Virus record (IMG/VR): IMGVR_UViG_3300043788_000049
Location: 1-64,000 of that record
Strand: one strand, 5' to 3'
DNA length: 64,000 nt
Source of the DNA: a virus
Shown here: piece by piece, positions 10,301 to 41,163 of the stretch
Numbering within the stretch: the first letter of the stretch is position 1
Layout: every line of letters begins with the position of its first letter
Program-made: the position numbers and the translations under genes
Notes under the pieces: model-generated
Told to the model about the DNA's origin: nothing
What the model saw: the letters and a program-made list of their open reading frames with translations, nothing else
Database searches by the model: none

Positions 10301-11215
10301 TTAGGTCCCGTAGGCCGCCGTCATCATGGACGGCATATCTTTTTCCACGACGTTGCCGGGGTTCTTCTCCATGTCCTCGGCCCAGACCTTAAGCTTTTCG
10401 ACGGCCTTGCGCTTGATCCGCCAATAGCGATCGTCGGCGGCCGGCTGCGCCATGACCCCGCGCGCCATGGTGCGCACCTGATCGTTGATCCAGGTCGAGC
10501 GGTGTTCGACGAGGGGATAGGCTTGGCGCAGGAGTTCCTTGCGCCATTCCGGCTCCTGGAAGTCCTCGCCGTCGATGATCGCCCGCGCCTGCGCGCGCCG
10601 CTCGCGCCGCCCGGCGTCGAAGAAGGTCGCCCAGAAGGCCAGATCGCGCATTTCCTGCGTGCCGGCCTTCACCTGCTGGGTTTGATCGGTTTCGACCGGG
10701 GCGTAGGCGATGCGGCCGATGAGGCGGGCGACGTCATCCACCCAATGATCGACGAACCAGAACGGGAAATAGGTCGGGAAGACAAAGCCGAGCTTGTCGG
10801 CCAGCTTTGCGGTGATGCACATGTAGGCCGGGAACGAGGCGTTCGCCATCGCCGAATAGACGCAGCCAATCCCGTCGGGGAAGATCGCCGAGGCCTTCAG
10901 AAACATCTCATCGAAACCGTGCGTCAGGACCATGCTGTCGTCGCACATCGGCATAAACAGTGTCCCGCCCATCTGGAGGCCGCGGTTCCACTTCTCGCCG
11001 ATACTATCCTCGCGGGGCTCGACCGAGAGGAAAATCCGGGGGTCAAGCTCTTTGTCGATGCACGCCCGAACGGCGTCAGCGGTCGCATTGTCGTCGCCGT
11101 CGACGCAAACCATGATCCGGGTGTCCTGGCGGATCGCGTGCCGGATGACTGACCCGATGACGTTGACACACATGCCGGGGCGATTGCGCGTGGCGAGGCT
11201 GATGGTGAGGCTCAA
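10301..11215 (-). CDS. Glycosyltransferase, GT-A/GT2-like
   Basis: TTG start after AGGAG (MSLTISLATRNRP); VDGDD, KWNRG, MCDDS (DxD-like) and WFVDHW motifs. Confidence 0.75.
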   Translation of the reverse strand: MSLTISLATRNRPGMCVNVIGSVIRHAIRQDTRIMVCVDGDDNATADAVRACIDKELDPRIFLSVEPREDSIGEKWNRGLQMGGTLFMPMCDDSMVLTHGFDEMFLKASAIFPDGIGCVYSAMANASFPAYMCITAKLADKLGFVFPTYFPFWFVDHWVDDVARLIGRIAYAPVETDQTQQVKAGTQEMRDLAFWATFFDAGRRERRAQARAIIDGEDFQEPEWRKELLRQAYPLVEHRSTWINDQVRTMARGVMAQPAADDRYWRIKRKAVEKLKVWAEDMEKNPGNVVEKDMPSMMTAAYGT

Positions 11216-11436
11216 AGGGTTGCTCCTGATTGGTCGAAGGCGTTGGCGACGGCGGCGAGCGAGAAATAGAACCCCTCCCAGCGCCATCGGCCCAGGTGGA
11301 AGCCCTCGAAAACGATGTCCTCATTGAGGATGACTAGCAGGTCCTTGCGCCTGCGAGCCCGCCCGTAGCGGAAATAATAGCGGCCGTTCACATAAAAGAG
11401 GACATAGCCCTGGCGGAGAGCGGCGAAGGTGGTCAT
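11212..11436 (-). CDS. Small hypothetical protein in the glycosylation cassette
   Basis: Coupled by ATGA and TTGA overlaps at both ends. Confidence 0.45.
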   Translation of the reverse strand: MTTFAALRQGYVLFYVNGRYYFRYGRARRRKDLLVILNEDIVFEGFHLGRWRWEGFYFSLAAVANAFDQSGATL

Positions 11437-12095
11437 CGCTTCGGCTCGCAGCAAAGCATCAGGTGATATGCCGTCATCCCCGGATGATCGGTAAATAGTG
11501 CGGTTCCGGTCATGCCGAAACGGAACACGTTGTGGAAATAGTGCAGCAAATCCTCTCTCATATCGTCCCCATTTTTGCAGTTGATATGCCCAATTCTACT
11601 TTTCTCACTGGCGTATTGCTGAAACTCAAGGGACGGGCAGCCGGCGATGAAAACCCCATGCGGCTGTAGCGACGCGCAGATGTTGCGCATGGCGCGCGGC
11701 TCGTCGACGGGTCGAATGTGCTCCAGGACATCGAGCGCATAGATCCCGTCATATGGTTGGACGCCCTTGCGCGCGGTGAGCGGGCCATCCTGCACAATGT
11801 CATGGACGCGGAAGTCGCAACCGCTCTGCGTCGCATATTCCGCCCAGGCGACATCGAAATCGTAGAGGTCGAGGCGTCCAACGCGCCGTTCGACCACCGG
11901 AGCCGCAAAGCCATCGGAACAGCCAATCTCGGCAACAGCGGCCTTCCCTTGCATATGCTTGGCGACAAAATCGACGTGCGAGAGGAGCCGGACGAGCCGA
12001 TCGGGATTGCGCCGCCATGTCCCGCCGGTCATCGGCCCGAGCGTGACCGGCTCCAGGGCGAAGTCAGAGGCGTATTGAGGTTCGCGGGTTCTCAC
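11433..12095 (-). CDS. Class I SAM-dependent methyltransferase
   Basis: VAEIGCSDG (motif I), YDGIYALDVLEHI, L.PHGVFIAGCP. Confidence 0.85.
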   Translation of the reverse strand: MRTREPQYASDFALEPVTLGPMTGGTWRRNPDRLVRLLSHVDFVAKHMQGKAAVAEIGCSDGFAAPVVERRVGRLDLYDFDVAWAEYATQSGCDFRVHDIVQDGPLTARKGVQPYDGIYALDVLEHIRPVDEPRAMRNICASLQPHGVFIAGCPSLEFQQYASEKSRIGHINCKNGDDMREDLLHYFHNVFRFGMTGTALFTDHPGMTAYHLMLCCEPKR

Positions 12096-12287
12096 ATCCG
12101 GCTCGCGGCGTCCTTGATGGCCTCGCTGGTCGAAAGGCCGCGATTGCGCGCTTCCGGGAACGCCACGCTGAAGGCATTCCTCACGCGCCTCTCCTTGCTT
12201 TTATTGCGAACCCGGCGCTTGAAAATGCGGCCATCCTTCATCACGCGCGGATTTCCCCCGCTCTCGAAATAAAAATGCTGCATTGGC

Positions 12288-13070
12288 TCACACAGGCGCG
12301 CGCTGCGGCTCGGGGGGTGGAGTGAGCCCATTGAGCAATTCCTTCACGCCGGCGAGCGTGCGGCCCTCGATCCCCATCTTCTGGAGTTCGATTTCCCTGG
12401 CGTATTTGGTCCGCAGCCACGGCCCGAGCGCGCCGACTGATTCGGTCTGCCATTTGTGGTGGAGGATCAATTCCGGGTCGATCCAGGTCTTCTCGCCGAG
12501 GGCCGCCCATTTCTTGCAGAACGTGTAATCCTCGCCCCACAATTGATGGGTGGCCTTGTTGAATTGGAACTCGAAGAGGTTGAACAGGCGCTTGCCGGGC
12601 GCCGTCATGTCCTCATACCACTCGTCCTGGTGGGCCGCGACGAGCTTCTCCGCGCAATCGCGCCGGATGCGCAGGAACCCGGTCGGCGACGCTTCGACCT
12701 CCATCAGACCGGTCTTCTCGTCGAACATCAGCCGATCCTGCCAGGGCTTGAAGACGAAGCCCTCCTTGTCGCCGCGGTGCGGATAGACGCCGCCGACCAG
12801 CGCCACGTCATGGCTCATCAGCCGCGTGAAGCAGCCCGATTCCGCCCAGACATCGGAATCGACGCACATCATGTCGTCGAAGTTGCCTTCGAGGAATTGG
12901 GCAAAGAGCACGGCGCGCGCGCGCGGGAGGATCGAATCCGTGGTGCGCAGCGTGAAATCGCAGCCCCATCCCTTGGCGTTCGCCTCCTGCGACATCTTCG
13001 CGATGCTGGCGTGATAGCGATAATCAAGCTCCCCGTTGTAGGTCGGGGTAGCGATCAGGATTCTGCGCAT
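12288..13070 (-). CDS. Glycosyltransferase-like protein (GT-A fold)
   Basis: ILIATPTY, ILPRARA, VDSD (DxD), GGVYP, PTGFLRI, GEDYTFCKKW..LG..W.DP. Confidence 0.8.
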   Translation of the reverse strand: MRRILIATPTYNGELDYRYHASIAKMSQEANAKGWGCDFTLRTTDSILPRARAVLFAQFLEGNFDDMMCVDSDVWAESGCFTRLMSHDVALVGGVYPHRGDKEGFVFKPWQDRLMFDEKTGLMEVEASPTGFLRIRRDCAEKLVAAHQDEWYEDMTAPGKRLFNLFEFQFNKATHQLWGEDYTFCKKWAALGEKTWIDPELILHHKWQTESVGALGPWLRTKYAREIELQKMGIEGRTLAGVKELLNGLTPPPEPQRAPV

Positions 13071-13102
13071 GTGGGGAATCTCGCTGGCGAAATGCTGCCA
13101 GC

Positions 13103-13142
13103 AGATAAGATTAGGGCCGCTCCGGTGTCAATGGAGCGGCCC
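13103..13142 (-). promoter_or_regulatory. GC hairpin after the decoration gene with TTGACA in its loop (terminator/promoter)
   Basis: Stem GGGCCGCTCC (13114-23)/GGAGCGGCCC (13133-42). Minus-strand TTGACA at 13131-26 and TTATCT 17 nt downstream. Confidence 0.55.
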
Positions 13143-13166
13143 CAAAGTCAGAGCGTGAACTTATGA

Positions 13167-14414
13167 TCAAAGGTCGGCGGTAGCCTGGATGAAGCCGGAG
13201 TTGGGCTGCCGGCTGACCAGAAGCGCGGCCTGACCCGAGGCGGCGGTCGTGGTGCTGACCACGTTGATGAAGTTGACCGTATGCGTCGACCCGGCGGCGA
13301 AGCCGGAGACGGCGGCCGTGGTGCCGATGACATAGAGGGCGAACGAGCCGGCGAGGACCGTGACGGTCGGCGGGGAGCGCATCTGAACCGGCAACGGGAT
13401 GAAGATCGTCTCGTTGTTGGTGGTGATGACTTCGCCGGAACCGACGATCGAACCCGAAGTGCCTTCGTTGATCTGGAAGAAATAACGCTGGCAGATTTCC
13501 AGTTCGACCTGGACGTCGCGGTGCTCGAAGGCGGTCGGCCCCGTGCCGGCCTCAAGCTGGACGCCCCACATATAGATATTGTCGCCCACCACCGCGTTGG
13601 AGTTCGTCGGTGAATAGGAGAACAGGGCGGCGAGCTGGGTCGCGCTGGTCGGAACCGTCCCATAGAAGGAATAGCGGGTCGGGGTCGAAGTCAGAGCCTG
13701 GGTCGCGCTGATGACGTTGTTATAGCCCGTCCAAGTGCCGGCGACGGCGGAGGTAGCCGACTGGTTGGTGCCGCTACCCATGGCCAGCGTGACGCCCATG
13801 TTGGCGCCTGAGAAGCCGGTATTGGCCGCAGCCCAGAAGGATAGCGTGACAGGCGATCCCTGCATGCGAATGCTGTCCAGGCTCTCCAGGACCTGCCCGA
13901 AGGTGATCGTAGAGACGGTGGTGCCGGACGTGCCACGGCCCCACTGGAAGGCTTGCGAGAAGGTCGGAACCGATGTGGTAGCGACGTTCGACACGGTGGC
14001 CGAGGTCGCTGCGGCGCCGGCAATGAGGAACCAGCGATCAGCCGTGTAGACGGCGGTCGTGCCGATGTTCGAGAAGAAGTTGCCGCGCTGCCACGGGTTG
14101 ATCGTCGCGTCGCCGCCGTCGAGGAGGTTGCGGAAGTTGGACGACAGATAGCCGGCTTGCGCGCCAAAGAAGGGCGCGACGGTGGCCGCGCGAGACGTCG
14201 AGGTCGGGCTATTGGTGACGTAAGCCTGATAGGTCACGCCGCCAGCGACAATATTGACGATGTCGCCCTGCTCCATGCCGCGCGCAGCGCCATCGGAGAA
14301 GTAGCCGGCGCTGAACACCGTCGCGATGCCGTCGGGCGAGACGTAGAAGAATTCGCCCTGATTGCCCTCGATCGTCTGGGCAATGCGGGACAGAAAGTTG
14401 CCGTTATAGGCCAT
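13167..14414 (-). CDS. Capsid decoration protein fused to a Ser/Thr-rich beta-sandwich, fibre-type domain
   Basis: Directly after the capsid gene. N-terminal AGYFSDG..RGM..GDIV; C-terminal NLLDGGD..PWQRG..YTADRW..GVQLEAG..PTAFEHR..ELEICQRYF. Confidence 0.65.
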   Translation of the reverse strand: MAYNGNFLSRIAQTIEGNQGEFFYVSPDGIATVFSAGYFSDGAARGMEQGDIVNIVAGGVTYQAYVTNSPTSTSRAATVAPFFGAQAGYLSSNFRNLLDGGDATINPWQRGNFFSNIGTTAVYTADRWFLIAGAAATSATVSNVATTSVPTFSQAFQWGRGTSGTTVSTITFGQVLESLDSIRMQGSPVTLSFWAAANTGFSGANMGVTLAMGSGTNQSATSAVAGTWTGYNNVISATQALTSTPTRYSFYGTVPTSATQLAALFSYSPTNSNAVVGDNIYMWGVQLEAGTGPTAFEHRDVQVELEICQRYFFQINEGTSGSIVGSGEVITTNNETIFIPLPVQMRSPPTVTVLAGSFALYVIGTTAAVSGFAAGSTHTVNFINVVSTTTAASGQAALLVSRQPNSGFIQATADL

Positions 14415-24129: not shown

Positions 24130-27100
24130 TTAGGGAAGGATCAGCGGCGGCCCCTTGACCGTGGCGTCATCGGGTGGGACGAGCCCGGTCTTTTGCTGAA
24201 ATTCAAGATATTCGCCGGAATTGCAGGGCGTGAAGACGACGCGCGCGCGGTCCCAATCTGGCCTACCGCCCGAGGCGTCGGCGGTTTCACGGATTTGCGT
24301 CTTGACGGCTCTGGTCAGTAAATCATCGATCCGGACGTCCTGAGTGTGCCTACGACACAGATGGCAATCGTGCATGCTGACGATGGGCTTGCGGATTTTC
24401 TCGTGCCAGCCAACGAAGGGGACCAGAGCGCAAGGGGCATACGCGCCGTTTTCATCGCATCCATGCGAGTCACAGCGAAACCCGAAGAGAGTGGTCCCTT
24501 CAACTCGACGTGCCATCAGCGGAGCGCCCACTGAACGATCGTGGCGATGAGGGCCACAAAAGCGGACGCGACTATCGCTACTAAGCTCCAATCAAGCCGA
24601 AGCGGCTTGGAGGAGAATGAAACTTGTGATGGCTGCGTCCTTGTCAGGGACTGCCACACCAGATGCTCATTGAGCTTCTCGTTCTTGTCCTCGATCGCGC
24701 CGAGAACATCCATGGCATGGAATAAAGCTCCGGCGCTATCGACGTAATAAATGCCATGGGGCGGCCCATAGCCGTGGACGGTCAGCACATTTCCGCCCCA
24801 ATGGATATTGTAGGCCATCAAAAGGCCATGAGCCGCCTGAGTCGGCGCATAATCCTTGAGCGTCTCGCAATATTCTCTGACCTTTGCGGCATGGTCGGGA
24901 TTGGCAAAGACCGAATCAGCCGGACAATCGAGCTGGGGCGGAACTTCGGGGATGATGGTGGGGGCGGGGGCAGGCTGGCTATAGACGCCGGCCTGTTGAT
25001 AGGTGCCGCCGCCATACGGCTGGGTTGCGAGAACTTGCCCCATCCCCGACAGCCCATTGCCGCCGCCGCCATATTGGCTTAGGGCGTGCTGGTAGGCTTG
25101 GGTGGCGGCGTTCATCTGCGCGAGCATCGCTGGGTGCATCATCCACCCGCCACGAAATCGAGCAGCTCGCGAGCGATTCGGATGAGGTCTGCAGGCGGGG
25201 AGCCAGTGGGTAGCGACGAAGCCGCCATTTTCAGGACCTCCATTCTGATTTCCGGGGTGGCGGCGCTTTTGCCGCCGGATAGCCCCGTTGTCTCTGCGGG
25301 ACGGTCCTTCATGGACTGCGCTTTCATGAGCGCCTGACGGGTTTCCGGGTCGATCCCAGCGGGGAGGGCTGGCGGTGCGCCTTCGTCCTCGGCAGGGGCG
25401 TTCGGGTCGATCACCTGCTTGGGGTTCGGATTGGTCCCGTCAAAGACATGGACGCGCTCTAAGGGCACATGCTTCTCCTTCTTCTCAGTCTTCCGAGCTT
25501 CGAGGGTTGCGGCCCATTGGCGGGCGCGGCGCAGCCGGCGGCTTTCGGACGCCGCCACTTATCGAACCCTCGGCGACGCGCTTGGCGTAGGCCAGAATAT
25601 GCTCGGCCAGCGCTTTCTGGACCTGAACGGGATCGTCATTGCTCAGAACAAGATTGCCCTTGATGTTCGAGCCCTCAATGTCGGGCGACCGGATGATAAG
25701 GGTTATCAGCTTCGAGTGGAACAGCTTCGCGATCTGGGCCAAATCCGCTTGGAGGGCGTGGCCGAGGGCTTCGGGGAGGTCCTTGGTGATCGGGGCGGCG
25801 AGGATGGCGGAGGCGATTTCCTCGTATATGAAATTGGCTTTATGGTCGGGACAATGAGCCCGCGCTATCTCCGCTGCCCGCTCGAAGGCGAGACGACGTT
25901 CAGAGCGGAGAACGCTCGTTGCCCTATCTTGACATTTACATTGAACGTCGGGGGCGCAGAGTAAGGCACACCATTTTCGAGCCTCACTTTGTAATTCCCG
26001 CGCCCTCTCTTCCATCTCGCTCATCTCATCCCCCTTTGGAGCTAGTGAAGAAACTATTCTACACGAACCAAGTACAGGTCCATGCAATATGATCAATCCG
26101 GCTTGACTTAATGCTTCGTCGAGGGTCATGGTATGTTCCCTATCCACCAGCCTTGTATATAATCCAAAGTTGCTGAGCAGTTACAGCAACTATTAAGCCA
26201 GTGATGAACCCGAGTAAAAACAACATCTCATTTCCCTTTGGAGTCGGTCAGCGCGGCGCGGGCGAGCAGCACCATGCTGCCAGTGCGGAGATTAGGATTT
26301 GAAGCGATGTTCTCCAGCGCCTCCCGCAATCGCGCGAGTTCGGATTCGGCTTCCTCTCGCCGTCGGCTTGCGCTAGCCGCCCATATTCGCCAATGCAGCA
26401 CATCATCCTCGAAAGGATGCGCGGTTAGGTTCAACCCCGCGACTGTATCTTGCGCCTCCTGCAGCGCGGCGATGAGACGGCGGATACTTTTGGCATTGCG
26501 AACAATCCACGCGCCGAGATTTTCATAATCGGCTTCGCTGCTAAACTTCGCCGTCTGGTCTATGCGACTAAGCAATTCCCCAATCAGCGCTTCAATCTCG
26601 CTCGGATCGCTCATTCGGTTCTCCTACGATGGGGAGGAAGGAGTGTTTGCTATTTTCTTCTTCGCCTCTTCAAGGCAATGAATGGCGACTTGGATGAGGT
26701 AGGCATTCCGCACATCTGTTGGGTTCTCCCACCACAGCTTTAGATTGCCCTCGGCTTCCCTGACGTTTTTCTGGGCAGTGTCGCCCAGAGGAAGAACAAA
26801 TAATCCCATCTCCCTCTCCCTTTCTCTGCTCAATCAGGTGAACGCGGAACGAAGGGAGTAGTCATGCCATCGGCACTGGGGGATGTTGGGAAAAGTGGCG
26901 CACTTCCGTCTCTGATGTGTTTTATGAAGCGCTGTTGGACCTCATTGGTGGCAGTATCCCAATCCCATTCGATGCCGGTCCAAGCACGAGATGTTTCCTC
27001 GTAAAGAGCCTTGGCGGCTTTAACGATCGTCGTTGCTGAAATAGCGCTCATTCACGGTTCTCCTACGGCGCCCAAACGACACGCGGTCATGCCGGCCGCT

Positions 27101-30100: not shown

Positions 30101-30274
30101 GCAGCCACTATCGCAAAACCATAGCCCGTAAACCTTGATCCACGTCCCGGCCTGTAGAGCCCGAAGCGCGCTCCGTCGCGAATAACCAAGCCCTAAATTC
30201 GCCTCCTGGCACCACGGGCAAACTACGCCCCAATCGGCGACAAGCTTCCCATCCCGCGTGTTGTTTGCCGTCAT
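24130..30274 (-). other. Cluster of about 18 small, translationally coupled accessory genes between terS and terL
   Basis: Chain of ATGA/TGATG overlaps, e.g. 24130-24516, 24516-25142, 25139-25558, 26228-26614, 26624-26833, 26830-27051, 27087-27293 (RHH-like), 27290-27517, 27514-27747, 28225-28455, 28452-28748, 29041-29511. Confidence 0.65.
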
Positions 30275-30777
30275 CATGCCACGTCCCTCATAATCCGCCG
30301 CGCCGTGATTTCGACATCCCGGTTCACAAGCCCAGGCCAAATCGCGATTAGCTTTTCCTCCATCGCCCGCGCCTGCTCGCGCGTCGCATAAGTCGCCATC
30401 TTGATCATCTTCGGCCTCACTCCGTGCTCCTGCATCCAGCAATAGACCGCGCTCTCGCGGCTGTGCATGTGCGAAAGCCTGCGGGAGGCCATATCCATCG
30501 TGATCCCCACATAAATCGGGCGGCGGTCACGAGGATCAATCCAATAATAAACGTGGTGGTAAACCGGCCAAATTACGGGGTCCGCTTCTTCCCTCGCCGG
30601 TAGTCCTTCATGTAATCCCGCATATATTCCTTGTGATAACGCTGCCTGTCGAAGGGCTGCTTCGTCGCGGGCTCCGCAGGTTTCGCACTCGGAGGCTCCG
30701 GGGGAGGCACTGGAGCCACATTCGGCACAGACAATTTTTCCTCTTTCGGAGAGATGCTGCTTTTCGAAGGGCGACAT
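30274..30777 (-). CDS. GIY-YIG nuclease-family protein (start uncertain: 30777 or 30573)
   Basis: VYYWIDPRD..IYVGIT...R..SH...AMEEKLI. Confidence 0.7.
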   Translation of the reverse strand: MSPFEKQHLSERGKIVCAECGSSASPGASECETCGARDEAALRQAALSQGIYAGLHEGLPAREEADPVIWPVYHHVYYWIDPRDRRPIYVGITMDMASRRLSHMHSRESAVYCWMQEHGVRPKMIKMATYATREQARAMEEKLIAIWPGLVNRDVEITARRIMRDVA

Positions 30778-32684: not shown

Positions 32685-32936
32685 TTACGCCCTCTTGGCG
32701 CGTAGCTCATCAAGGACGTCGAAGAGATTGGGGGGATCGGTGAATGATTGCAAAGTCCAGACCCCGAATCTATTTAATCGCCACGTCCATCCAGCCTGAT
32801 GACCATTGAGCGCGTTTAGCCAAAGCACGCCACCGCGCCGGCGAAGCTGGAAATCAATATTCTTTGGGCAGATAGAGAGGGGTCCTAGCTCATCCTCCGA
32901 CAGATCGCCAACGCCTGGAAGCTTCTCAATGCTCAT
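32685..32936 (-). CDS. Small protein with C-terminal PNLFDxLDELR motif
   Basis: Ends PPNLFDVLDELRAKRA; start overlaps the upstream gene. Confidence 0.7.
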   Translation of the reverse strand: MSIEKLPGVGDLSEDELGPLSICPKNIDFQLRRRGGVLWLNALNGHQAGWTWRLNRFGVWTLQSFTDPPNLFDVLDELRAKRA

Positions 32937-33204
32937 GGGCCCGCAATTCCTCAATGATGTCAAATAGATTGGGGTTTGGGTCCAACCACACCGGACAAAG
33001 CGTGCCGTCGCACCCGTAACGCCACTCGTTCCCCAAAAATATGCGCTGCCATGTAGAGTCTGGATACTTAGAGCGATCTTCCGCCATCAGAGGGCCAAGG
33101 ATGCTCGGATAAGCCAGCCAATCGCCATCTTCCGGCAGCGCATTGACCGCTTCCAGCTCGATCGCCGTCAGCCGCCGCGCGCCTTCTCGAATCATGACGC
33201 TCAT
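32926..33204 (-). CDS. Small protein with the C-terminal motif
   Basis: Ends PNLFDIIEELRAHEH; ATGA coupling. Confidence 0.7.
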   Translation of the reverse strand: MSVMIREGARRLTAIELEAVNALPEDGDWLAYPSILGPLMAEDRSKYPDSTWQRIFLGNEWRYGCDGTLCPVWLDPNPNLFDIIEELRAHEH

Positions 33205-33479
33205 TTGCGCAACTCGTCCAAGATGTCGAAAAGGTTGGGGCCGACCATCGCCCGGAACTCCTCATCGGGGCTTATCTGTTGCCACTGATACGAGTGGCCG
33301 CTCGAACTCACGTTGAGGGCGCAGACGACACTATTCTGGGTATTGCGCAGCCAAATCTTGCCGTCAGCGGCACGCTCTACTGTCCAGTTCACCTTCTTAT
33401 CCAGCGCCCGCAGAGCCTCTAATTCAATCCGCGTTGTGATGAATCTTCCGTCATTTGGTTCAAGTGTGAGGACCGTCAT
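33201..33479 (-). CDS. Small protein with the C-terminal motif
   Basis: Ends GPNLFDILDELRK; ATG at 33479 overlaps the TylF stop. Confidence 0.7.
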   Translation of the reverse strand: MTVLTLEPNDGRFITTRIELEALRALDKKVNWTVERAADGKIWLRNTQNSVVCALNVSSSGHSYQWQQISPDEEFRAMVGPNLFDILDELRK

Positions 33480-34258
33480 TTGCGTAACCAGCGAACCGAG
33501 AAGTCCACATGCGCCAGATAGGGCCTGATCCTCAGCGTTGAGAAGAACTCGTTGCAAGCGTCCCGACATCCTTTGAGGCACCAGTCATCGATAATCACGA
33601 AGCCGCCGGGCACGACCAGATCCCATAGGTGGTCGAACGCGACCTTGTAGCTGTCGTAGAGGTCGCCATCGAGCCGCAGGATTGCGATCGGGCCAACGTA
33701 ATCGACCGGAACTGTGTGCTGGAACCAGCCCTTGTGGATGTGCAGATCGTCCAGCGGATAGCCGATTTGCGCCATCAGCCCGATCACATCGCCCAATTTA
33801 GCATCGCCGAGCGCGCCAGCGGCTTCGAGCGCGCCATCGCAGCGCCCAGGCGGCAATTTCTGCGTTTCGCACGCCCAGATTATGTCGTCCTTGTCGAACC
33901 GAGGCCACGGAATGCCCTCGAAACTGTCAAAAGCGTGCAAAGCCCGGCGGCGAGAGCCAAACTTGAGATTGGCGAGCGCCATCGCGCCCAGAGCTCCGCC
34001 CCGCCAACAGCCCAATTCAACAAATGCGCCCGGTATCGCTTCCTCCTCGCAATAGCGGACCTGATCAATTAATGTCGCAATCCCGTCATACGTGACCATG
34101 GTGTGAAGCTTGATGGCCTCGATGATCGGCCACATGACCGTGTGCTCGTCGCGATAGCCGCGCGACATGAACTGCGAGTGGATCATCGCGTCCCCGATCG
34201 AGATAGCCTGCGATGAGAAACATTGGTCCGATGGGCCAACCCCTGGGTAAATCATCAT
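33476..34258 (-). CDS. TylF/MycF/NovP-family O-methyltransferase
   Basis: PGAFVELGCWRGG, FDSFEG, KGWFQHT, LRLDGDLYDS, PGGFVIIDD, GCRDA. Confidence 0.9.
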   Translation of the reverse strand: MMIYPGVGPSDQCFSSQAISIGDAMIHSQFMSRGYRDEHTVMWPIIEAIKLHTMVTYDGIATLIDQVRYCEEEAIPGAFVELGCWRGGALGAMALANLKFGSRRRALHAFDSFEGIPWPRFDKDDIIWACETQKLPPGRCDGALEAAGALGDAKLGDVIGLMAQIGYPLDDLHIHKGWFQHTVPVDYVGPIAILRLDGDLYDSYKVAFDHLWDLVVPGGFVIIDDWCLKGCRDACNEFFSTLRIRPYLAHVDFSVRWLRK

Positions 34259-34303
34259 GCTTGATCCGGCGAGTTCCGTTGGTTAAGAGGCAGTTTATCA
34301 CAG

Positions 34304-34507
34304 ATGGAGACGCGAGTGGAAACCCCGAGCGACAAATTGGACCGAGCGAAGCGCGATAAGCTGCTCGATATTATCCGGCGAGTGATCGCCAACCCGGAGA
34401 ACGCCAAGGAAGCCGCGGACGAGATCGCGCAAGACTGGTTTCCGATGATCAAGGTTGATGCCCGCGGCGCGATACACTTTCGTGTGGGCTCGGGCCGCAA
34501 ACGATAG
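34304..34507 (+). CDS. Hypothetical protein
   Basis: First of three closely spaced plus-strand genes. Confidence 0.5.
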   Translation: METRVETPSDKLDRAKRDKLLDIIRRVIANPENAKEAADEIAQDWFPMIKVDARGAIHFRVGSGRKR

Positions 34508-34516
34508 GAGCGACCA

Positions 34517-34696
34517 ATGAAGCTGATCCTCGCGTTGTTCGTGGCCCTCGGCCTCTCGGGATGCGCCACGGGCAACTATCCGAGCCAAGACTATAGCTGG
34601 GAGCACCACGAGGACCATGGATGGGACCACCCAGACCATCATGGCGACTGGCGTCATCCGAATCACCGCCGGCTCAAACATCAGGCAAAGCCATGA
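34517..34696 (+). CDS. His-rich lipoprotein (59 aa, not in the ORF track)
   Basis: AGGAG SD; MKLILALFVALGLSG|C lipobox; WEHHEDHGWDHPDHHGDWRH. Confidence 0.7.
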   Translation: MKLILALFVALGLSGCATGNYPSQDYSWEHHEDHGWDHPDHHGDWRHPNHRRLKHQAKP

Positions 34697-34902
34697 GCAT
34701 CATTTCCAGCGTCGATCTGGCCCGCAAGCTCGTCATCATGGCGTCCGGCGAGGAAGTCCCGATCACCAATATGTTCGATCGGCACGGCGAGGAAGTGACC
34801 GACCCGCGCCGCGCCGCGACCGTCGTTGCCGGGCCATGTGAGGCGGGATGGATTGCCACTGTCCTTAGCGAGGAGGAGCGGGAGGAGTTGGAGCCAGCGT
34901 AG
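34693..34902 (+). CDS. Hypothetical protein
   Basis: ATGA overlap; MSIISSVDLARK...PITNMFD. Confidence 0.55.
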   Translation: MSIISSVDLARKLVIMASGEEVPITNMFDRHGEEVTDPRRAATVVAGPCEAGWIATVLSEEEREELEPA

Positions 34903-35173
34903 CGCGCAATTCCTCGATCACGTCAATGATGTTGGGGCCGGGCTCCTCCCACGCCTCAATGATCGGCCATTCCTCCAACTCGGGTTGGCGCAGATCGCGC
35001 GGCAGCCACCTGCCGTTGCTCATCAGAGCCCACACTCCTTGGATATTTCGTAGCATGAGCCCGTGGGCGTGCCGTGAGAGCACAAAATTAAGCGGAAGGT
35101 CTGAGCGCACTCGCTCGACCGCCCGTTCCTCAGCCTCACTCATCGGGAGGCAGTTAGGGTCATATCGGATCAT
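34865..35173 (-). CDS. Small protein with the C-terminal motif
   Basis: GPNIIDVIEELRATL near the C-terminus; ATGA coupling. Confidence 0.65.
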   Translation of the reverse strand: MIRYDPNCLPMSEAEERAVERVRSDLPLNFVLSRHAHGLMLRNIQGVWALMSNGRWLPRDLRQPELEEWPIIEAWEEPGPNIIDVIEELRATLAPTPPAPPR

Positions 35174-35418
35174 CGCCGCGCCCGCAGTTCGTCGAGGAGA
35201 TCGAAGAGGTTGGGGGCGTCTACGGATAAGACGATCCAATGCCCGTCGAGCCCCGTTTCCTTTTCCCATGCCATTCTCGGGAAATGGCCATTTTCATCAA
35301 CTGCGACGAAGGTGGCGAACTCGTAGCGAAACGTGCATATCCACTTGCCACCGCGAGGCAAAAGATCCGCGCCCGTGAAGATGCGCCCATCGGGCGTAAA
35401 GACCGGACTGCTAGCCAT
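35170..35418 (-). CDS. Small protein with the C-terminal motif
   Basis: Ends APNLFDLLDELRARR. Confidence 0.7.
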   Translation of the reverse strand: MASSPVFTPDGRIFTGADLLPRGGKWICTFRYEFATFVAVDENGHFPRMAWEKETGLDGHWIVLSVDAPNLFDLLDELRARR

Positions 35419-35653
35419 CCCGCTTGGCCTCCAGCGCGCGTAGCTCCTCGATCACGTCCACAATGTCAGGGCCGGGAGGGGGCGGGTTCTTCCACGCATC
35501 ATACTGCGCGGTCCAATCGATCCGGAGCGGATAGAGCCAATGAAGCACGAAGCCGAGAAGAAGCCCGAGCCCGAGGATCACGATTGAACCCATCATCACG
35601 ATCGCCAGAAAGCCCAGGGCGATATTCACGACCATGTCGGGATCAATCATCAC
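35411..35653 (-). CDS. Membrane-anchored small protein with the C-terminal motif
   Basis: Long hydrophobic N-terminus; ends GPDIVDVIEELRALEAKRDG; coupled to the VWA stop. Confidence 0.7.
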   Translation of the reverse strand: MMIDPDMVVNIALGFLAIVMMGSIVILGLGLLLGFVLHWLYPLRIDWTAQYDAWKNPPPPGPDIVDVIEELRALEAKRDG

Positions 35654-36807
35654 GCACTCGGGTCCAGATCGAGCAACTTCCCGAACGGCGGCTTGTTCGA
35701 ATAGCCTCCATATCGCACCCAGAGCACCGGACAGCCGGGTTCCTGGCCGAAGCTATGGCAGCACAGGTCGGTCAGATAAACGACGCCAGAGGCCTTGGGA
35801 GCGTGTTCTGCGGTCCATCGGAAGGCCGGAGCGAAATCTGTCCCCCCTCCAGGCTTCGGACACACGTTGATGATGTCGCCGGCCTCGAACTCCAACGTCT
35901 CTTGGACCGCGCAATCGCAGAACCCGACAGTCAGCTTCTCGCACGCGCTCTCATCGAGGAAGCCCTGTAGCTCCGCCATGATCGCGGCCAGGGAGCGCTC
36001 GTCCATCGAGCCCGACGTGTCGACCCAAGCGACGATATGCGAGGGCGCGATCGAGCCCGACCCTGGAAGGATTATCCCGTCGCCATAGTCGCGGCGCGAC
36101 GGGCGCGTCCAATCGGTGTCAACGATGCGTGATTCGTCCGCCCAATCCCGGAATAGCTCCTTCCAGGTGATCGTGGGCTTGTCCAAATCGGCCATCATCT
36201 TGACCAGGGGCGCGGGAATCGAGCCGACGTTCTTGGCGCGCGCCACCGCCATCGCTTGTCGCACCTGCACCTGGGCGCGGCGCTCGGCCTCCTTCATTTC
36301 CGAGGAGGCATAGGGCGGCGCAGCGTCCATCACCCCGCCGCACTTGCCGGGGTCGCTGCCATCGCCCCCCTTGACCTTCTTCGCGTTCTTGACCAGCAGG
36401 TTGTAGACCTGCTCGGTCGACATGCCCTCGTATTTCTGGTCGTAAAGGTGCGGGTTCGGCAGCTTGATGCCAGCGCGCCGCAGATCGGCGTTAATGACGA
36501 AATCGCCGGCAATGTTCCAGATGTCGCCCTGGCGATCGCCGCGGCGCGTGTGGTGGAGATAGCAAACGTGCATCACTTCGTGCGCAAGGACAGCTTCAAG
36601 CTCCTCCATCTTCAGCTTCAGGACGAACGGCGCCCAATAGAACAGGCGCTTGCCATCCGTCGCCATCGTGTCGATGCCAGAGCCCTCGGGGCCCGGATGG
36701 ACCCCCATGTGCATGATCAAGACGGCGAAGAATGGCTGGCTCATCATCAGCCGCGCCCGTGCCTTCAGGATCTTCTTCTCAGCTTCGATCTGGTCTGGAG
36801 TCAGCAT
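35650..36807 (-). CDS. DUF2201-type metallopeptidase plus VWA domain protein (MoxR partner)
   Basis: TMATDG, AHEVMH (HExxH), WNIAGDFVIN, DTSGSM (MIDAS), GGGTDF, YLTD. Confidence 0.9.
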   Translation of the reverse strand: MLTPDQIEAEKKILKARARLMMSQPFFAVLIMHMGVHPGPEGSGIDTMATDGKRLFYWAPFVLKLKMEELEAVLAHEVMHVCYLHHTRRGDRQGDIWNIAGDFVINADLRRAGIKLPNPHLYDQKYEGMSTEQVYNLLVKNAKKVKGGDGSDPGKCGGVMDAAPPYASSEMKEAERRAQVQVRQAMAVARAKNVGSIPAPLVKMMADLDKPTITWKELFRDWADESRIVDTDWTRPSRRDYGDGIILPGSGSIAPSHIVAWVDTSGSMDERSLAAIMAELQGFLDESACEKLTVGFCDCAVQETLEFEAGDIINVCPKPGGGTDFAPAFRWTAEHAPKASGVVYLTDLCCHSFGQEPGCPVLWVRYGGYSNKPPFGKLLDLDPSA

Positions 36808-37238
36808 CAGAAATCTCCATCGGCGATCTGAGCGCAAGGGATTCCAAGCTTGCGCCATACATCCACGACGCGCTTCCTGTCCTCGAAAATCATGATCGGC
36901 TCGAACCCCGCCTCGCGCGCCTCAGCCAGCAACTCGACCTTGACCACGCTATCGTCTCGATAGTCGCCAGCCTTGCGCATGAAAAGGCCATGGATAAGCA
37001 CTCCGTGCTTGGTCAGCCATTCCACTGTGAGTTGCCGGCACTCATCAGAGCGCCCCGAGAGGCACACGACTGGCGCAGGGAGCATCTGCGCCAGATCGAT
37101 CATGTGAGGGATAGGCGCGTCGCCGTCGCACGCAGCGAAGAAGGCCCGCCAATCCTTTGGCTTCTTCTGGATGTGATGCAGCCGATGTGACGGGTCCGAA
37201 AGCGTCCCATCGATGTCGAAAAACCATGCCCGCTTCAT
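36807..37238 (-). CDS. HAD phosphatase (PNKP 3'-phosphatase-like)
   Basis: FDIDGTL, LSGR, D..VK, FEDR..VV. Confidence 0.88.
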   Translation of the reverse strand: MKRAWFFDIDGTLSDPSHRLHHIQKKPKDWRAFFAACDGDAPIPHMIDLAQMLPAPVVCLSGRSDECRQLTVEWLTKHGVLIHGLFMRKAGDYRDDSVVKVELLAEAREAGFEPIMIFEDRKRVVDVWRKLGIPCAQIADGDF

Positions 37239-37249
37239 TTTCTGCCCCC

Positions 37250-38245
37250 CTAGATCGAGATGTCCTGGTTCCGCGTCGCCCACTCGGTGTAGGCCTTGGT
37301 GGTCTTGAGCGAGGGATCGCGCTTGACCGCATCCGTGACCAGCGTCATCTCGAAGTCCTTGGTCAACCGGCCGCCATAGATGAGGATCGCTTCGAAATTT
37401 CCCCGATCCGCCTTGCGGGCCAGAGCGCCAACCACCGCAAATTGGGTGTTTGGAGCCGATGGAACCGCAGCCTTCCTCGGATGCGCGATGATCTCGGCCA
37501 AGGGCGGTAAGGTTTTATACGTCTGAATGAACGCCTCCAGTTCCGACGCCGCGCCCTCGCCAACTAATCCCTCGATCAGCTTTTGCCGAATATCGTCATC
37601 GGCATGGATGACCTTGGCGACCTGGACCCAGGACCGCGGCGACGGGAACGCCCGAACCTCGATGTTCTGCGGGACATTGTGGAGCAAGGCCGGCCGATAG
37701 CGCAGGAAGGCGCAGATGAGCGGTTCGATCAGCGCCTTGTTGGCCCAGGACTGCCAAGCGTCCATGTCCTCCTCGACGTCGATCCAGGCAAAGCGATTCG
37801 CCAAGCCAACCGGCATCTTGTTGACGCCGGAGCGGTCGATCTGCCGATTGCCCGCGGCGACGATCATTGTCCGGGGAGGCAATTTATGCAGGCCGACAGC
37901 CCGATTCCACACCAGTTGGAAAAATGCCGTTTGCACAGAAACGCTTCCCTGAACTAATTCGTCGATGAACAGCATCGTCGGCCTGTCGCCGTAGCTCTCC
38001 AGCTCCGTCAGCCACTTCGGCTTGGCCCAATCGACGCCCGCATCCGCCCGGAAGGGCAGGCCACGAACGTCAACTGATTCGAGCGTCGTCGCGCGCTCCT
38101 CGACCAGCACAGCGCCCAGCTCATCGGCGACCTGATAGACGCCCTCCGACTTGCCGATGCCGTTCTTGCCGGAAATCATCACCGACATCCCAGCCGCGAG
38201 ATAGGCTTTCAGGCACTTCTTAGCCATCGTGACGTTCATAGGCAC
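37250..38245 (-). CDS. MoxR-like AAA+ ATPase
   Basis: GKNGIGKS (Walker A), DVRGLP, LFIDEL (Walker B), AAGNR, LANRF, PSPRSW. Confidence 0.9.
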   Translation of the reverse strand: MPMNVTMAKKCLKAYLAAGMSVMISGKNGIGKSEGVYQVADELGAVLVEERATTLESVDVRGLPFRADAGVDWAKPKWLTELESYGDRPTMLFIDELVQGSVSVQTAFFQLVWNRAVGLHKLPPRTMIVAAGNRQIDRSGVNKMPVGLANRFAWIDVEEDMDAWQSWANKALIEPLICAFLRYRPALLHNVPQNIEVRAFPSPRSWVQVAKVIHADDDIRQKLIEGLVGEGAASELEAFIQTYKTLPPLAEIIAHPRKAAVPSAPNTQFAVVGALARKADRGNFEAILIYGGRLTKDFEMTLVTDAVKRDPSLKTTKAYTEWATRNQDISI

Positions 38246-38308
38246 AACCCCTTTCGTCGAAGCCTAATCGCTTCGGACAGCCGGCGCGAGGCCGGCTCCC
38301 CGCTGCGG

Positions 38309-38536
38309 TCACAGCAGATGCGCCAGCCGATCGTTCAGCTTGCCCGGAGGCAGCGGGCGATCGCTCTCGATCGAAGACGTGCCGTGGGCATAGAAGAAGC
38401 AGCGCGGGTCGATCCTCTCCGCCTCATCGGCCGCAACCCTAACCGCAGCCCTGGCGCGTTCATGGTCGGCGAACGGCCCAAGCAGCCAAGCCGTGCGCTG
38501 GCCGTCCTTCAAGGTGACGTAATAGCCTTTTGCCAT
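38309..38536 (-). CDS. Hypothetical protein
   Basis: AGGGGA SD; MAKGYYVT...LLGPF. Confidence 0.55.
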   Translation of the reverse strand: MAKGYYVTLKDGQRTAWLLGPFADHERARAAVRVAADEAERIDPRCFFYAHGTSSIESDRPLPPGKLNDRLAHLL

Positions 38537-38539
38537 TTG

Positions 38540-38700
38540 GATTTCCCCTTTCCTCACTTTCCCATAAATGAGGCCGTAGAGCCGGTCAAGCGAAATCTGG
38601 CTGTTTCCCCCAATAATATGGGCGTGGGCAGTTGACATGCGCCAGAATATCATATCTAAGGAGCGTGGGGCGATCGTGTCCCAATCGAAAGGGGTTAAAA
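38540..38700. promoter_or_regulatory. Divergent promoter region
   Basis: Minus-strand CTTGAC at about 38586-91 and plus-strand TTGACA at 38632-37; flanking genes diverge from here. Confidence 0.5.
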
Positions 38701-38895
38701 ATGTTAACCATTCACCGCACCGCCCAAGAATGCCAGAACCTCGCCGCTACCTTCGCCAAGGACGCCCTCGAAGCCCAGGAGCGCGGCGACGAAGGGATCG
38801 CCTGGGCCTTCATGGCCAAGTCAGCCTATTACGAGAATGAGGCCCTGGAGCAAATGAAGATCGAAGACCAGATGGCCGAAGCCCTCGCGGCGTGA
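38701..38895 (+). CDS. Hypothetical helical protein
   Basis: AGGGG SD; first gene of the plus-strand arm. Confidence 0.6.
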   Translation: MLTIHRTAQECQNLAATFAKDALEAQERGDEGIAWAFMAKSAYYENEALEQMKIEDQMAEALAA

Positions 38896-38906
38896 AGGAG
38901 GACACC

Positions 38907-38996
38907 ATGAGAATCACACCGATCGAATTAGCTCTGATCCTCGCCCTGGTGGCGCTGGCTGTCACCGTCTCTATCGCAACAACCGCAGGGGTGTGA
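38907..38996 (+). CDS. 29-aa hydrophobic peptide resembling a Flp/type IV pilin alpha1 helix
   Basis: AAGGAGG SD; MRITPIELALILALVALAVTVSIATTAGV. Confidence 0.6.
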   Translation: MRITPIELALILALVALAVTVSIATTAGV

Positions 38997-39007
38997 GAAT
39001 ATTTGGC

Positions 39008-39286
39008 ATGAACCCCCACGCCCAGGCAGTCGAGGCGATCATGGAGGCGGTGGCGGAATATGCGCCGCCGCTGGATAAGCCTGTGGGGTTTCTCCATGAA
39101 TTTCTCGACCGCGCGGCGTTATTGGACTTGGACGGAGCCGAAAACTATTTGCGGTGGTTGCTGAACTTGCCGACGGACACGCCCGGCATTCTCGTGCAAC
39201 ACGGATTCCGGTGGGAACGGGAGCCTAATAAGCGGCGCAGAGAGATCCTCGTGAACTGGCTCCGGCGCGTAAGGTTCATGAAATGA
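39008..39286 (+). CDS. Small protein with N-terminal HxxxVxxI motif
   Basis: MNPHAQAVEAIMEAVAEYAPP. Confidence 0.65.
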   Translation: MNPHAQAVEAIMEAVAEYAPPLDKPVGFLHEFLDRAALLDLDGAENYLRWLLNLPTDTPGILVQHGFRWEREPNKRRREILVNWLRRVRFMK

Positions 39287-39828
39287 CCAAGCGCCACGTC
39301 CACCACATCGACGGCAACCCCAACAACCACGACCTCGCCAATCTGAGGTTGGTAAAGGCGAGCGTTGGCGTGTCGCCGAACTTGAACCCGGTGCCGCTTG
39401 GGAAGCTCTACGGCCGCTCCCCCGGCTCGCTCCCTGCCGACTTCGAAGAAGCGATGGACCGGATTAATTCATTCAACCGTCGCTTCAAAACCCGCCTCGT
39501 GAAGGTGACGCCCCCGCCGGCTAACAAGGAACATGCGGCGGAGGTCCAGAGCATTCTGGAGACGGTGTGCTCGGTGGACTTCGCGCCATCGCCCCAAGGA
39601 TTGCCAGGGATGCCCACTGAGGCTGATTTCGCCTATGCAGCCAGTATGGACAGCGCGGGCCGCGCCCTTGGGCATGTAGGCCGTCTTGCTGCCAATCTCT
39701 GCGGGTATTCAGAGCAAGTATTCGATTGGACTGTTGGCGAGGGACGCGCTTGGCTAGGGGCTACTCGCTCCTTCCGCCGCGATTGGCTCCGAGGCAAGGT
39801 CGAGCGCGCCTTGAGGGCCCGCCGATGA
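39283..39828 (+). CDS. HNH-remnant N-terminus fused to a motif-bearing domain
   Basis: VHHIDGNPNNHDLANL, then internal EHAAEVQSILETV. Confidence 0.6.
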   Translation: MTKRHVHHIDGNPNNHDLANLRLVKASVGVSPNLNPVPLGKLYGRSPGSLPADFEEAMDRINSFNRRFKTRLVKVTPPPANKEHAAEVQSILETVCSVDFAPSPQGLPGMPTEADFAYAASMDSAGRALGHVGRLAANLCGYSEQVFDWTVGEGRAWLGATRSFRRDWLRGKVERALRARR

Positions 39829-40124
39829 CCCACGCCGCCGAGGTCGAGCGCATCCTGGCCCATGCCGAGGAGTATCTGGCTCCGCCGCAGCGGGTTTTTG
39901 ATGCAGACTGGCTGACGGAGTGGTGCAAGGGCATGAGCGGTTTTTCGGCAGGGATCGCCGCCATATCCTGCGTGAGTTATTTCAAGCTAGATGAGCCAGA
40001 GGCGATGGTCGCCGACTTGCTTAACCGCCTTGGCTGGAGGGTGGCCGGAGCTACCGCGCGCGTCACAATCATTCGCAATGCCTTGAGCATCTTTGGCGTC
40101 CGGACGAAGCAGGCTCGCCCATGA
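39825..40124 (+). CDS. Small protein with the N-terminal motif
   Basis: MTHAAEVERILAHAEEYLAPP; ATGA overlaps. Confidence 0.7.
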   Translation: MTHAAEVERILAHAEEYLAPPQRVFDADWLTEWCKGMSGFSAGIAAISCVSYFKLDEPEAMVADLLNRLGWRVAGATARVTIIRNALSIFGVRTKQARP

Positions 40125-40420
40125 CCAACGACGCCCATAGCGCCCAGGTGGAGGCGATACTGGAGCAAATCGGGGCGTTTGCCTTCACCCCAGGAACCAA
40201 CCTGCGGGTCTGCGTAGGCCAAATCGTTCCAGGTGATGTGATCGTTTGGGACACATGCCAAAGGATCGTGAGAAAAGTCCGGCATACCGGCGGCCAATAT
40301 ATCGAAGTCTCAATGAGAGGCGTTGACGGTAAGGTGTTCGACGTCGATTGGGACGTCACTCATCACGTCGAAATCCTCACCCCGCCATTGCCGGAATGTA
40401 TCGCAAGAGGCTTGCTATGA
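40121..40420 (+). CDS. Small protein with the N-terminal motif and an SH3-like beta domain
   Basis: MTNDAHSAQVEAILEQIGAF...VGQIVPGDVI. Confidence 0.7.
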   Translation: MTNDAHSAQVEAILEQIGAFAFTPGTNLRVCVGQIVPGDVIVWDTCQRIVRKVRHTGGQYIEVSMRGVDGKVFDVDWDVTHHVEILTPPLPECIARGLL

Positions 40421-40644
40421 ACCCCGCCGATCACAAAGCCGCCGTCGAGGCGATCGAGGCAAAGGTCGCGGAGTATGAGGGGCCAGTGCCTGCCCACGAT
40501 CGCTGGACTGTCGATTTGGGTAGCACAACCATCACGCCACTCTTGAGCGGCAACTTTAACGTGCTGAGTGGGTATTACCTTGTCGCAACGCCGGAAGAGG
40601 CAGCAAAAAACCAACGAGCCTTTTGGGAGAACCTAGACCTATGA
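40417..40644 (+). CDS. Small protein with the N-terminal motif
   Basis: MNPADHKAAVEAIEAKVAEYEGP. Confidence 0.65.
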   Translation: MNPADHKAAVEAIEAKVAEYEGPVPAHDRWTVDLGSTTITPLLSGNFNVLSGYYLVATPEEAAKNQRAFWENLDL

Positions 40645-40889
40645 CCGACGCCGTGACCATCAAGTCCTTCTCCGAACTCGCCAAGGAATGGCGGACCCGC
40701 AACCGCTACTCCCGCCCCCAGCTCTCCGAGCTGACGGGATACTCCCCCTCGGCCATCCAGGACATCGAGGAGGCGATCTACCGCTCCCCGCCCCATCCGG
40801 TCAGCCCGGAGGTCATGCGGCGCTACCGGCTGATCTGCGCCGCGGTGGAGCACAAACTGACGGATTGGGAATTTACCGATCGGGGATGA
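40641..40889 (+). CDS. XRE-family HTH regulator
   Basis: KEWRTRNRYSRPQLSELTGYSPSAIQDIE. Confidence 0.75.
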   Translation: MTDAVTIKSFSELAKEWRTRNRYSRPQLSELTGYSPSAIQDIEEAIYRSPPHPVSPEVMRRYRLICAAVEHKLTDWEFTDRG

Positions 40890-40890
40890 A

Positions 40891-41163
40891 ATGACCCACG
40901 CCTCACAGGTCCAGGCCATCCTCGATCGCGTCGCGGAGTGGGAGACGCCGCATGCCGCGGTGATCGAAGCAGCCTTGGAGCAAGCCGCGCACATGGCTCC
41001 GGGCGAAGCCTTACGCTGGCTCAACGCTCGCTTCGGGACGCCAATCCCGCAGTTTTGGGTCCAGCACGAGGTAGGAACGTGGGGATCGATAATAAAGATT
41101 GAGGAGCGCATCGTTTGGCTGCGGCGAAATTGCCTCAGCCCGACGCTAGGCTCCGGGTCTTAA
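40891..41163 (+). CDS. Small protein with a tandem N-terminal motif (probable paralogue of 39008)
   Basis: [37 protein letters not shown]; shares LRWL..VQH..WLRR with 39008. Confidence 0.7.

Follow-up and report, generated by a model that had tools for sequence, protein, structure and literature searches.

Candidate docking helices on two arrays of small phage proteins flanking a MoxR-like AAA+ ATPase along with a peptidase-VWA protein

The window analyzed here, 64,000 nucleotides in length, covers the opening 64 kb of one 87,271-bp virus record, IMGVR_UViG_3300043788_000049, a soil phage genome (G000 below) with direct terminal repeats and a completeness rating of 100%. In its 32,685-to-41,163 region, genes for a MoxR/midasin-like AAA+ ATPase and for a zincin-like peptidase fused to a von Willebrand factor A-like (VWA) domain are flanked by two arrays of small genes, one on the minus strand whose products end in a common short motif (the C-tag) and one on the plus strand whose products carry a different motif, usually at the start (the N-tag). 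The locus raises the question of what these shared ends do and whether they bear any relation to the AAA/VWA pair that they surround. We interpret the tagged arrays as a lineage-specific accessory module of a small soil-phage clade, arranged around a conserved AAA/VWA pair. The reading that we favor, with somewhat less than even confidence, is that the tags are docking helices that join the AAA/VWA-peptidase and the small variable proteins in a single module.

Six-frame pattern searches of the window and of the whole 87,271-bp genome identified exactly six matches to the C-tag, P-[ND]-[LI]-[FIV]-D-[VIL]-[LI]-[DE]-E-L-R, all on the minus strand between 32700 and 35461 and each 1 to 12 residues from its stop codon. 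The N-tag, H-x3-V-[EQ]-x-I followed by an aromatic residue [YWF] and proline, likewise has six matches, each of them on the plus strand and in the interval 39017-40920. Of these, five lie within a few residues of a plausible start, and the sixth (39532) is internal to a 181-aa open reading frame (ORF). Outside these arrays, neither motif occurs in array form in the window or the genome. Hidden Markov models (HMMs) of the tags only, run on both complete tagged genomes (G000 and a second phage, G001), reproduced the counts of six and six in G000 and added a single weak internal N-like block at 24516-25142. The arrangement first proposed from the sequence only, a hub flanked by C-tagged and N-tagged arrays, was thus confirmed. 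The description of both motifs as acidic helices was also upheld. The helices are amphipathic, AlphaFold2 (AF2) models place helices at residues 80-91 of C2 and 3-18 of N4 and the net charge of the cores is about −2. In a within-genome comparison of tags, conserved residues are encoded by the identical codon in only 29-56% of pairs; because the conserved residues use differing codons, selection acts on the protein rather than on the DNA.

The proposed identities of the AAA, HAD, and peptidase/VWA genes were borne out by Pfam, PHROG, and profile matches. The ATPase matches phrog_1297 (“ATPase”) at 6e-79 and, in profile comparisons, the AAA domains of midasin (6e-18), NorQ (9e-5), and CbbQ (1e-4). 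The motifs GxxGxGKS and hhhhDE are present in it and in all scorable homologues that were scanned, and its RGLP...W..P segment aligns to the helix-2-insert beta-hairpin of midasin. The window protein itself has no Pfam match at an E value of 0.01, and many of its homologues carry PF07728 (AAA_5) or PF00004. In the partner protein, the MIDAS metal site is intact, with residues D280, S282, S284, T340, and D364 invariant in 28 homologues (DUF2201 match, 2.6e-22). Its zincin domain matches PF13203 at 3.4e-37, with H93, E94, and H97 nearly invariant and H102 invariant. The true start of this gene is likely near 36807, overlapping the HAD stop codon.

With an alignment of AAA homologues, 80 IMG/VR loci were retrieved, and their small ORFs were screened for shared end motifs. 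Only two loci (L173 and L174) were picked, both from the complete 98,782-bp phage G001, whose AAA and VWA proteins are each 57% identical to those of G000. Directly after its VWA gene, G001 has six C-type genes with the variant tag [WYI]-[DE]-A-I-[DE]-[EA]-L-R-A-[ST]-E, and a divergent array holds eleven N-type genes together with an embedded helix-turn-helix (HTH) gene similar, by eye, to that of G000; the terminase small subunit gene lies beyond the C array. The two phages therefore have a common layout of N array, divergent gap, AAA, VWA, C array, and terminase small subunit, and in each the leading C gene begins with a start codon that overlaps the stop codon of VWA. The HAD and methyltransferase genes of G000 are absent from the G001 locus and hence are not core parts. 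The sequence-only reading had expected tags to be confined to genomes with the AAA/VWA pair. Both complete tag-bearing genomes do have the pair, but G001 was reached through its AAA gene and the two phages share common descent, so that co-occurrence and synteny carry little weight.

A more direct connection lies within the G001 ATPase gene itself, inside which the N-family profile finds a match. The G001 protein has a 28-31-residue insertion that is not present in 24 aligned homologues, and this insertion contains H-A-D-K-V-Q-S-I-L-D-Q-M-E-V-Y-A-G-P, in which none of the conserved N-tag positions (H, V, I, L, aromatic residue, and P) is missing. The distance between Walker A and Walker B is 86 residues in the G001 protein versus 52-71 in all other AAA homologues, in a set of 199 sequences in which the G001 protein occurs three times and other duplicates are also present. 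The insertion falls between two strands, RGLPF and W-A-K-P, that correspond in the alignment to the midasin helix-2-insert hairpin, and this alignment places the N-tag at the predicted tip of the pore-lining helix-2 insert. In NorQ/NorD structures, helix-2 inserts encircle the mouth of the pore and touch the VWA partner's finger, and the AAA-VWA contacts are made by helix-2 inserts and short terminal peptides (PMC13036017). At the nucleotide level, the G001 insert matches the N-tag genes of that phage at just 21-28 of 51 positions. It was thus not copied recently, and the peptide is old and has been maintained. The N-tag is accordingly a portable module, and the G001 insertion is the sole direct sequence link between a tag and the AAA/VWA machine. 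The link between tags and ATPase that had been proposed thus finds support in G001, but not in G000, whose AAA protein lacks the insertion.

How widely do the tags occur, and how fast do the genes that carry them change? Scans with DNA patterns identified two short soil-metagenome contigs, L061 and L022, of one close relative of G000. Between G000 and L061, the backbone is 82-86% identical, and identity rises to 92-96% across the tags with their junctions. Nucleotide similarity to L061 vanishes altogether in the bodies of C2 and C3, and the L061 gene in the C3 position is most like G000 C2. As bodies were replaced while ends were kept, the arrays turn over by cassette replacement or shuffling, in agreement with the earlier claim of rapidly exchanged bodies with retained tags. 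The gene adjoining C1 (32204-32680, plus strand) is a further end-conserved, body-swapped gene beside the C array: compared with L022 positions 104-556, its first 38 nt (~13 residues) are 100% identical and the remainder is unrelated sequence. In addition, the 67-aa ORF at 34304-34507 (plus strand) is missing from L061, which is otherwise collinear on both sides, and looks like a small indel or moron within the interruption of the C array.

Beyond this relative, a search of 5.8 billion protein clusters added only one C member (P0006) and two N members (P0012 and P0014), and the C-family profile run against 1.84 billion representative proteins returned nothing but the input lineages and spurious repeat proteins. 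The back-translated C-tag pattern gave only chance matches in IMG/VR. In metagenomes and 185,579 species genomes, its relevant matches were limited to L061 and L022, the others lying inside large proteins, such as FPNFFDVLEELR at the end of 447-589-aa frames that are EPSP-synthase-like by eye only. The N-tag pattern was found in IMG/VR only in G001. The tags were therefore found only in G000, the L061/L022 fragments, and one other complete phage, G001. Resemblances to beta-clamp-binding motifs and to SSB, FtsZ, and antitoxin tails were dropped since none fitted the invariant positions.

The AAA/VWA pair is far more widespread than the tags. In tblastn searches, the AAA gene was present in 833 phage records and the VWA gene in 665, N4-like phages included, and in ~70 of the 80 IMG/VR loci the two genes lie on the same strand, 0-3.5 kb apart. 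Twelve of the 80 loci (some of them near-duplicate contigs; Table 1) contain a separate paralogous family of 100-170-aa proteins in 2-5 copies per locus, mainly between AAA and VWA, with a few copies upstream of AAA or after VWA. Conserved in its members are an N-terminal x-I-[KR]-x-V-[WYF]-G-P motif and, at the C terminus, the helix L-[KR]-x-[KR]-L-x-P-E-[DQ]-[IL]-A. By hhalign, this intervening family, the C family, and the N family show no homology to one another. A further small paralogue array was observed in another AAA/VWA phage (L175, 17953-19263, minus strand), in which four adjacent small genes encode products with a common M-[ST]-[DN]-D-L-V-K-R-L-R at the N terminus and, further along, A-A-D-R-I-E-x-L-E.

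Taken together, the shared layout, the overlap between the C array and VWA, the N-tag in the G001 ATPase, the precedent of MoxR-vWA systems, the 12-locus family, and protein-level selection lead us to propose, without strong conviction, that the end helices are docking handles that would tie variable proteins and the AAA/VWA machine into one assembly. The small proteins would then be interchangeable adaptors, clients, or effectors of the ATPase/VWA-peptidase. The 12-locus family, with a C-terminal helix of its own near AAA/VWA, hints at a second case of the same kind. Binding of the tagged proteins to the machine is plausible; that the helices bind anything, what would read them (the AAA ring, the VWA finger or MIDAS, the tags by pairing with each other, or a third protein), any cleavage of the C proteins by the peptidase, and the targets of the variable bodies are all matters that we infer. 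A complex prediction for the VWA-peptidase, AAA, and C2 with alignment inputs scored 0.30 against a mark of 0.32, as a single prediction without controls, and weighs neither for nor against binding. A bolder extension, which is possible but unlikely, is that the pair forms a remodeling or processing platform programmed by the small proteins through mini adaptor helices, in which the bodies would pick host targets, e.g., defense proteins, for remodeling or cleavage by the machine.

Several observations weigh against a docking role. Only two related lineages are tagged, and their co-occurrence and synteny are expected from common descent alone. Most phage records and IMG/VR loci with the AAA/VWA pair have no tags, and the machine therefore does not need them. 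The G000 ATPase is without the N-tag insertion, so any link made by that insertion is optional. Start/stop overlaps are common in phage genomes. As a sequence, the C-tag is a generic pattern for helix starts that is also met with inside unrelated proteins, and the high predicted local distance difference test (pLDDT) score of the C2 terminal helix may mean that the helix is simply part of the fold.

Some of these points are equally at home with another explanation, namely, that the tags are read by a different shared partner, a host hub or another phage protein, with AAA and VWA as mere neighbors. The insertion could equally mark the G001 ATPase as one more tagged protein read by that third party. 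We regard this as a serious contender, though an unlikely one. The tags, as short acidic amphipathic helices separated off by proline-rich linkers, have the usual build of docking motifs, and the missing tag in the G000 ATPase and the many tagless AAA/VWA phages speak for it. It also accommodates the membrane-like helix on C6 and the N-tag-like block in a membrane-anchored 208-aa protein that lies far from the array in both phages. On our part we observed that this protein has a low-complexity Gly/Gln/Pro-rich N-terminal region and that N-P-D-H-A-A-K-V-R-x-x-C-E, which is N-tag-like, is the block best conserved between it and its G001 counterpart (97997-98425, plus strand). The explanation names no candidate reader, however, and the location of a tag at the pore-facing tip of the helix-2 insert, together with the C/VWA overlap, fits a direct relation more simply.

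The tags may instead have no shared partner at all, if the arrays are two ordinary fast-evolving paralogous families in which the end helix is the most constrained element of the fold or a self-association surface and the AAA/VWA synteny is inherited. The C proteins speak for this account. Together with their relatives, they form in alignment a single diverged and fast-diverging paralogous family, recognizable by an N-terminal L-[ST]-x-x-E helix, an LPxG motif, a pair of conserved Trp residues, and the C-terminal helix, and C bodies are 28-34% identical over ~80 residues in BLASTP comparisons across lineages. Within G000 taken alone, tag-stripped bodies score mostly at shuffle level, with a few pairs at z of ~4.6. 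The AF2 model of C2 is a small, compact alpha/beta unit (mean pLDDT, 77) ending in a confident helix, and small-paralogue arrays with conserved ends are frequent in related loci. Fold searches with this model gave no match above noise (Foldseek against PDB; VIA-wide best Z of 4.7, to the ToxR periplasmic domain), the ESM Atlas gave no usable lead, and no tagged protein has a family in Pfam or PHROGs. The earlier notion of unrelated cargo accordingly fails for the C proteins, but the N proteins look more mixed: inspection by eye and a single model suggest two or more body types, beta-rich and helical, and the N4 tag helix is set off from its body by a low-confidence linker. C6 is exceptional among the C proteins in that it combines the tag with a membrane-like helix in place of the common body. 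A helix purely internal to a fold fails to explain how the N-tag alone, without an N body, was grafted into an ATPase and kept there. We consider an absence of any shared partner to be rather improbable.

It is very improbable that the ends are conserved mainly as nucleic acid, containing the next gene's start and ribosome-binding site as well as serving as homology arms for cassette exchange: the well-conserved junctions around replaced bodies, the GAGG-like stretches 8-10 nt before the next start in several tags or tails, and the RecT-like and exonuclease VIII-like recombination proteins of G000 are in its favor, but conserved residues often differ in codon, the motif is kept at C1 and C4, neither of which has a downstream gene to serve, N-tags come after the start codon rather than before it, and the AAA insertion encodes the retained peptide by unrelated codons. 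Such a constraint probably adds to junction conservation, with the codon pattern and the AAA insertion beyond its reach.

The organization of the locus (Table 1) departs from the first description in some respects. The genes AAA-(HAD)-VWA-C6-C5-C4 are tightly packed with stop/start overlaps. The C array had been drawn as continuing behind VWA; C6-C5-C4 do follow it directly, but C3-C2-C1 are split from them by the plus-strand ORFs at 34304-34902 and the methyltransferase gene. The first leftward gene is not AAA, as had been supposed, but a 75-aa ORF, and by eye the 63-nt gap between the two holds two GC-rich hairpins. A promoter at 38540-38700 firing in both directions had also been proposed; a scan for sigma-70 sites gave one weak site, below chance expectation, and the intergenic regions of G000 and G001 have no conserved promoter element in common, so that this claim found no backing. 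In N2, residues 5-27 match HNH_3 (E value of 8e-5, under the Pfam cutoff), and the part upstream of its tag may be a decayed homing-endonuclease remnant fused on, or the true N2 start may be internal.

Table 1. Features of the tagged locus in G000 and position of the 100-170-aa family in other AAA/VWA loci
Feature	Coordinates	Strand	Remarks
208-aa protein outside arrays	24516..25142	-	Internal N-tag-like block; C-terminal membrane helix; no Pfam or PHROG family
C1	32685..32963	-	C-tag at end; likely start ATG 32936; orthologue P0006, 51% identity
C2	32926..33204	-	C-tag protein; AF2 model alpha/beta, C-terminal helix 80-91
C3	33201..33479	-	C-tag protein; start overlaps methyltransferase stop
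TylF-type O-methyltransferase	33476..34258	-	Within C array; in L061 relative, not in G001 locus
Three small ORFs: 67 aa, 59 aa (lipoprotein-like), 68 aa (phrog_12097)	34304..34902	+	Interrupt minus-strand C array; last two kept in L061
C4	34865..35173	-	C-tag protein; ATGA overlap with C5 stop
C5	35170..35418	-	C-tag protein
C6	35411..35653	-	C-tag protein; N-terminal hydrophobic membrane-like helix; start codon overlaps VWA stop codon
Zincin-like metallopeptidase (DUF2201_N, HExxH) fused to VWA-like domain (DUF2201)	35650..36858	-	phrog_1314; DxSxS..T..D MIDAS
HAD_PNKP-type phosphatase	36807..37283	-	Between AAA and VWA; not found in G001 locus
MoxR/midasin-like AAA+ ATPase	37250..38245	-	phrog_1297, N4 gp24-like; Walker A, Walker B, helix-2-insert hairpin
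75-aa ORF (phrog_20105)	38309..38536	-	First gene left of divergent gap
Divergent intergenic region	38537..38700	.	Promoter presumed
64-aa ORF, no known family	38701..38895	+	First rightward gene
N1	38993..39286	+	N-tag protein; likely start ATG 39008
N2	39283..39828	+	N-tag at residue ~84, downstream of weak HNH_3 fragment
N3	39825..40124	+	N-tag protein; orthologue P0014
N4	40121..40420	+	N-tag protein; AF2: N-terminal helix 3-18, linker, beta-rich body
N5	40417..40644	+	N-tag protein
HTH (HTH_31-like) protein	40623..40889	+	Embedded in N array; similar HTH gene in G001 N array (by eye)
N7	40891..41163	+	N-tag protein; orthologue P0012
Loci with 100-170-aa family: L182, L184-L186, L188-L191, L193, L196, L226, L234	~11000-13500 in each locus		

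The closest known systems include the MoxR AAA+/VWA pairs, such as NorQ-NorD, CbbQ-CbbO, RavA-ViaA, and midasin. Like them, the phage AAA+ protein has Walker motifs and a helix-2-insert hairpin, and its neighbor is a VWA partner with a complete MIDAS site; unlike them, the phage VWA partner has an N-terminal zincin-like peptidase domain (DUF2201_N), and no metal-cofactor enzyme is encoded near the phage genes. In bacterial MoxR-vWA ternary conflict systems, an effector-associated domain (EAD) adaptor occurs in one copy on a core component and in others on stand-alone effectors (Kaur, Burroughs, Iyer, and Aravind 2020, PMC7159879). The G001 ATPase similarly bears one N-tag, with many copies on nearby variable stand-alone proteins (11 array genes), and the phage arrays share the lineage-specific paralogy and fast turnover of the EAD systems. 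The phage module differs in being an ~18-residue helix where EADs are globular, G000 has no core copy, and the system is phage encoded. No VMAP or iSTAND-like gene was recognized among the scanned locus proteins, in which no search was aimed at them.

Peptide-processing add-ons of MoxR-vWA systems offer a second comparison: they pair a zincin metallopeptidase with small fast-diverging FxSxx-COOH-type proteins in which the C-terminal peptide is conserved (PMC7159879; Haft and Basu 2011, cited there). The phage locus likewise has a zincin-like peptidase beside small fast-diverging proteins with a conserved C-terminal peptide in a MoxR-vWA context. In contrast, the phage peptidase is fused to VWA, there are six paralogous putative precursors instead of one, the motif is different and helical, and a radical-SAM partner is lacking. 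If the pair does act as a programmable platform, it would be a phage counterpart of the EAD and peptide-tag logic of the bacterial conflict systems.

[quoted passage not shown] Tag arrays have not been described for N4-like phages, and G000 is not N4-like: an N4-like (Schitoviridae) identity was rejected because the sole giant ORF, of 2993 aa, is DarB-like and no giant virion RNA polymerase is encoded. That ORF (78265-87246, minus strand; L172) lies beyond the window and extends nearly to the end of the record, with PHROG matches to DarB-like antirestriction protein, DNA methyltransferase, and helicase. The terminase large subunit of G000 is ~39% identical to the counterparts in BPP-1 and Caulobacter podophages, and a terminase small subunit is encoded as well; no near-identical phage record was found for G000. 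Beside the terminase small subunit gene, a 167-aa ORF (30274-30777, minus strand) has weak zinc-ribbon and GIY-YIG matches, both under the Pfam cutoffs, and may encode a homing endonuclease.

Short common peptides on variable small proteins also occur in phage T4, whose internal proteins, encoded in hyperplastic loci, carry an N-terminal capsid-targeting sequence. It is removed by the prohead protease, and the cargo is packed in the head. The tagged set described here is unlike that of T4 in having membrane-anchored members and an insertion inside an ATPase, and its genes are located in the AAA/VWA operon rather than with head genes.

The AAA/VWA pair is present in hundreds of cultured phages and in the N4-like core set, and the N4-like core-genome literature assigns it no function. 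The tagged clade provides the first concrete candidate partners for this pair, 12-17 small proteins per genome with defined handles. In G001, a handle appears to have been grafted at the mouth of the ATPase pore, a natural experiment that makes the function of these putative docking helices directly testable.

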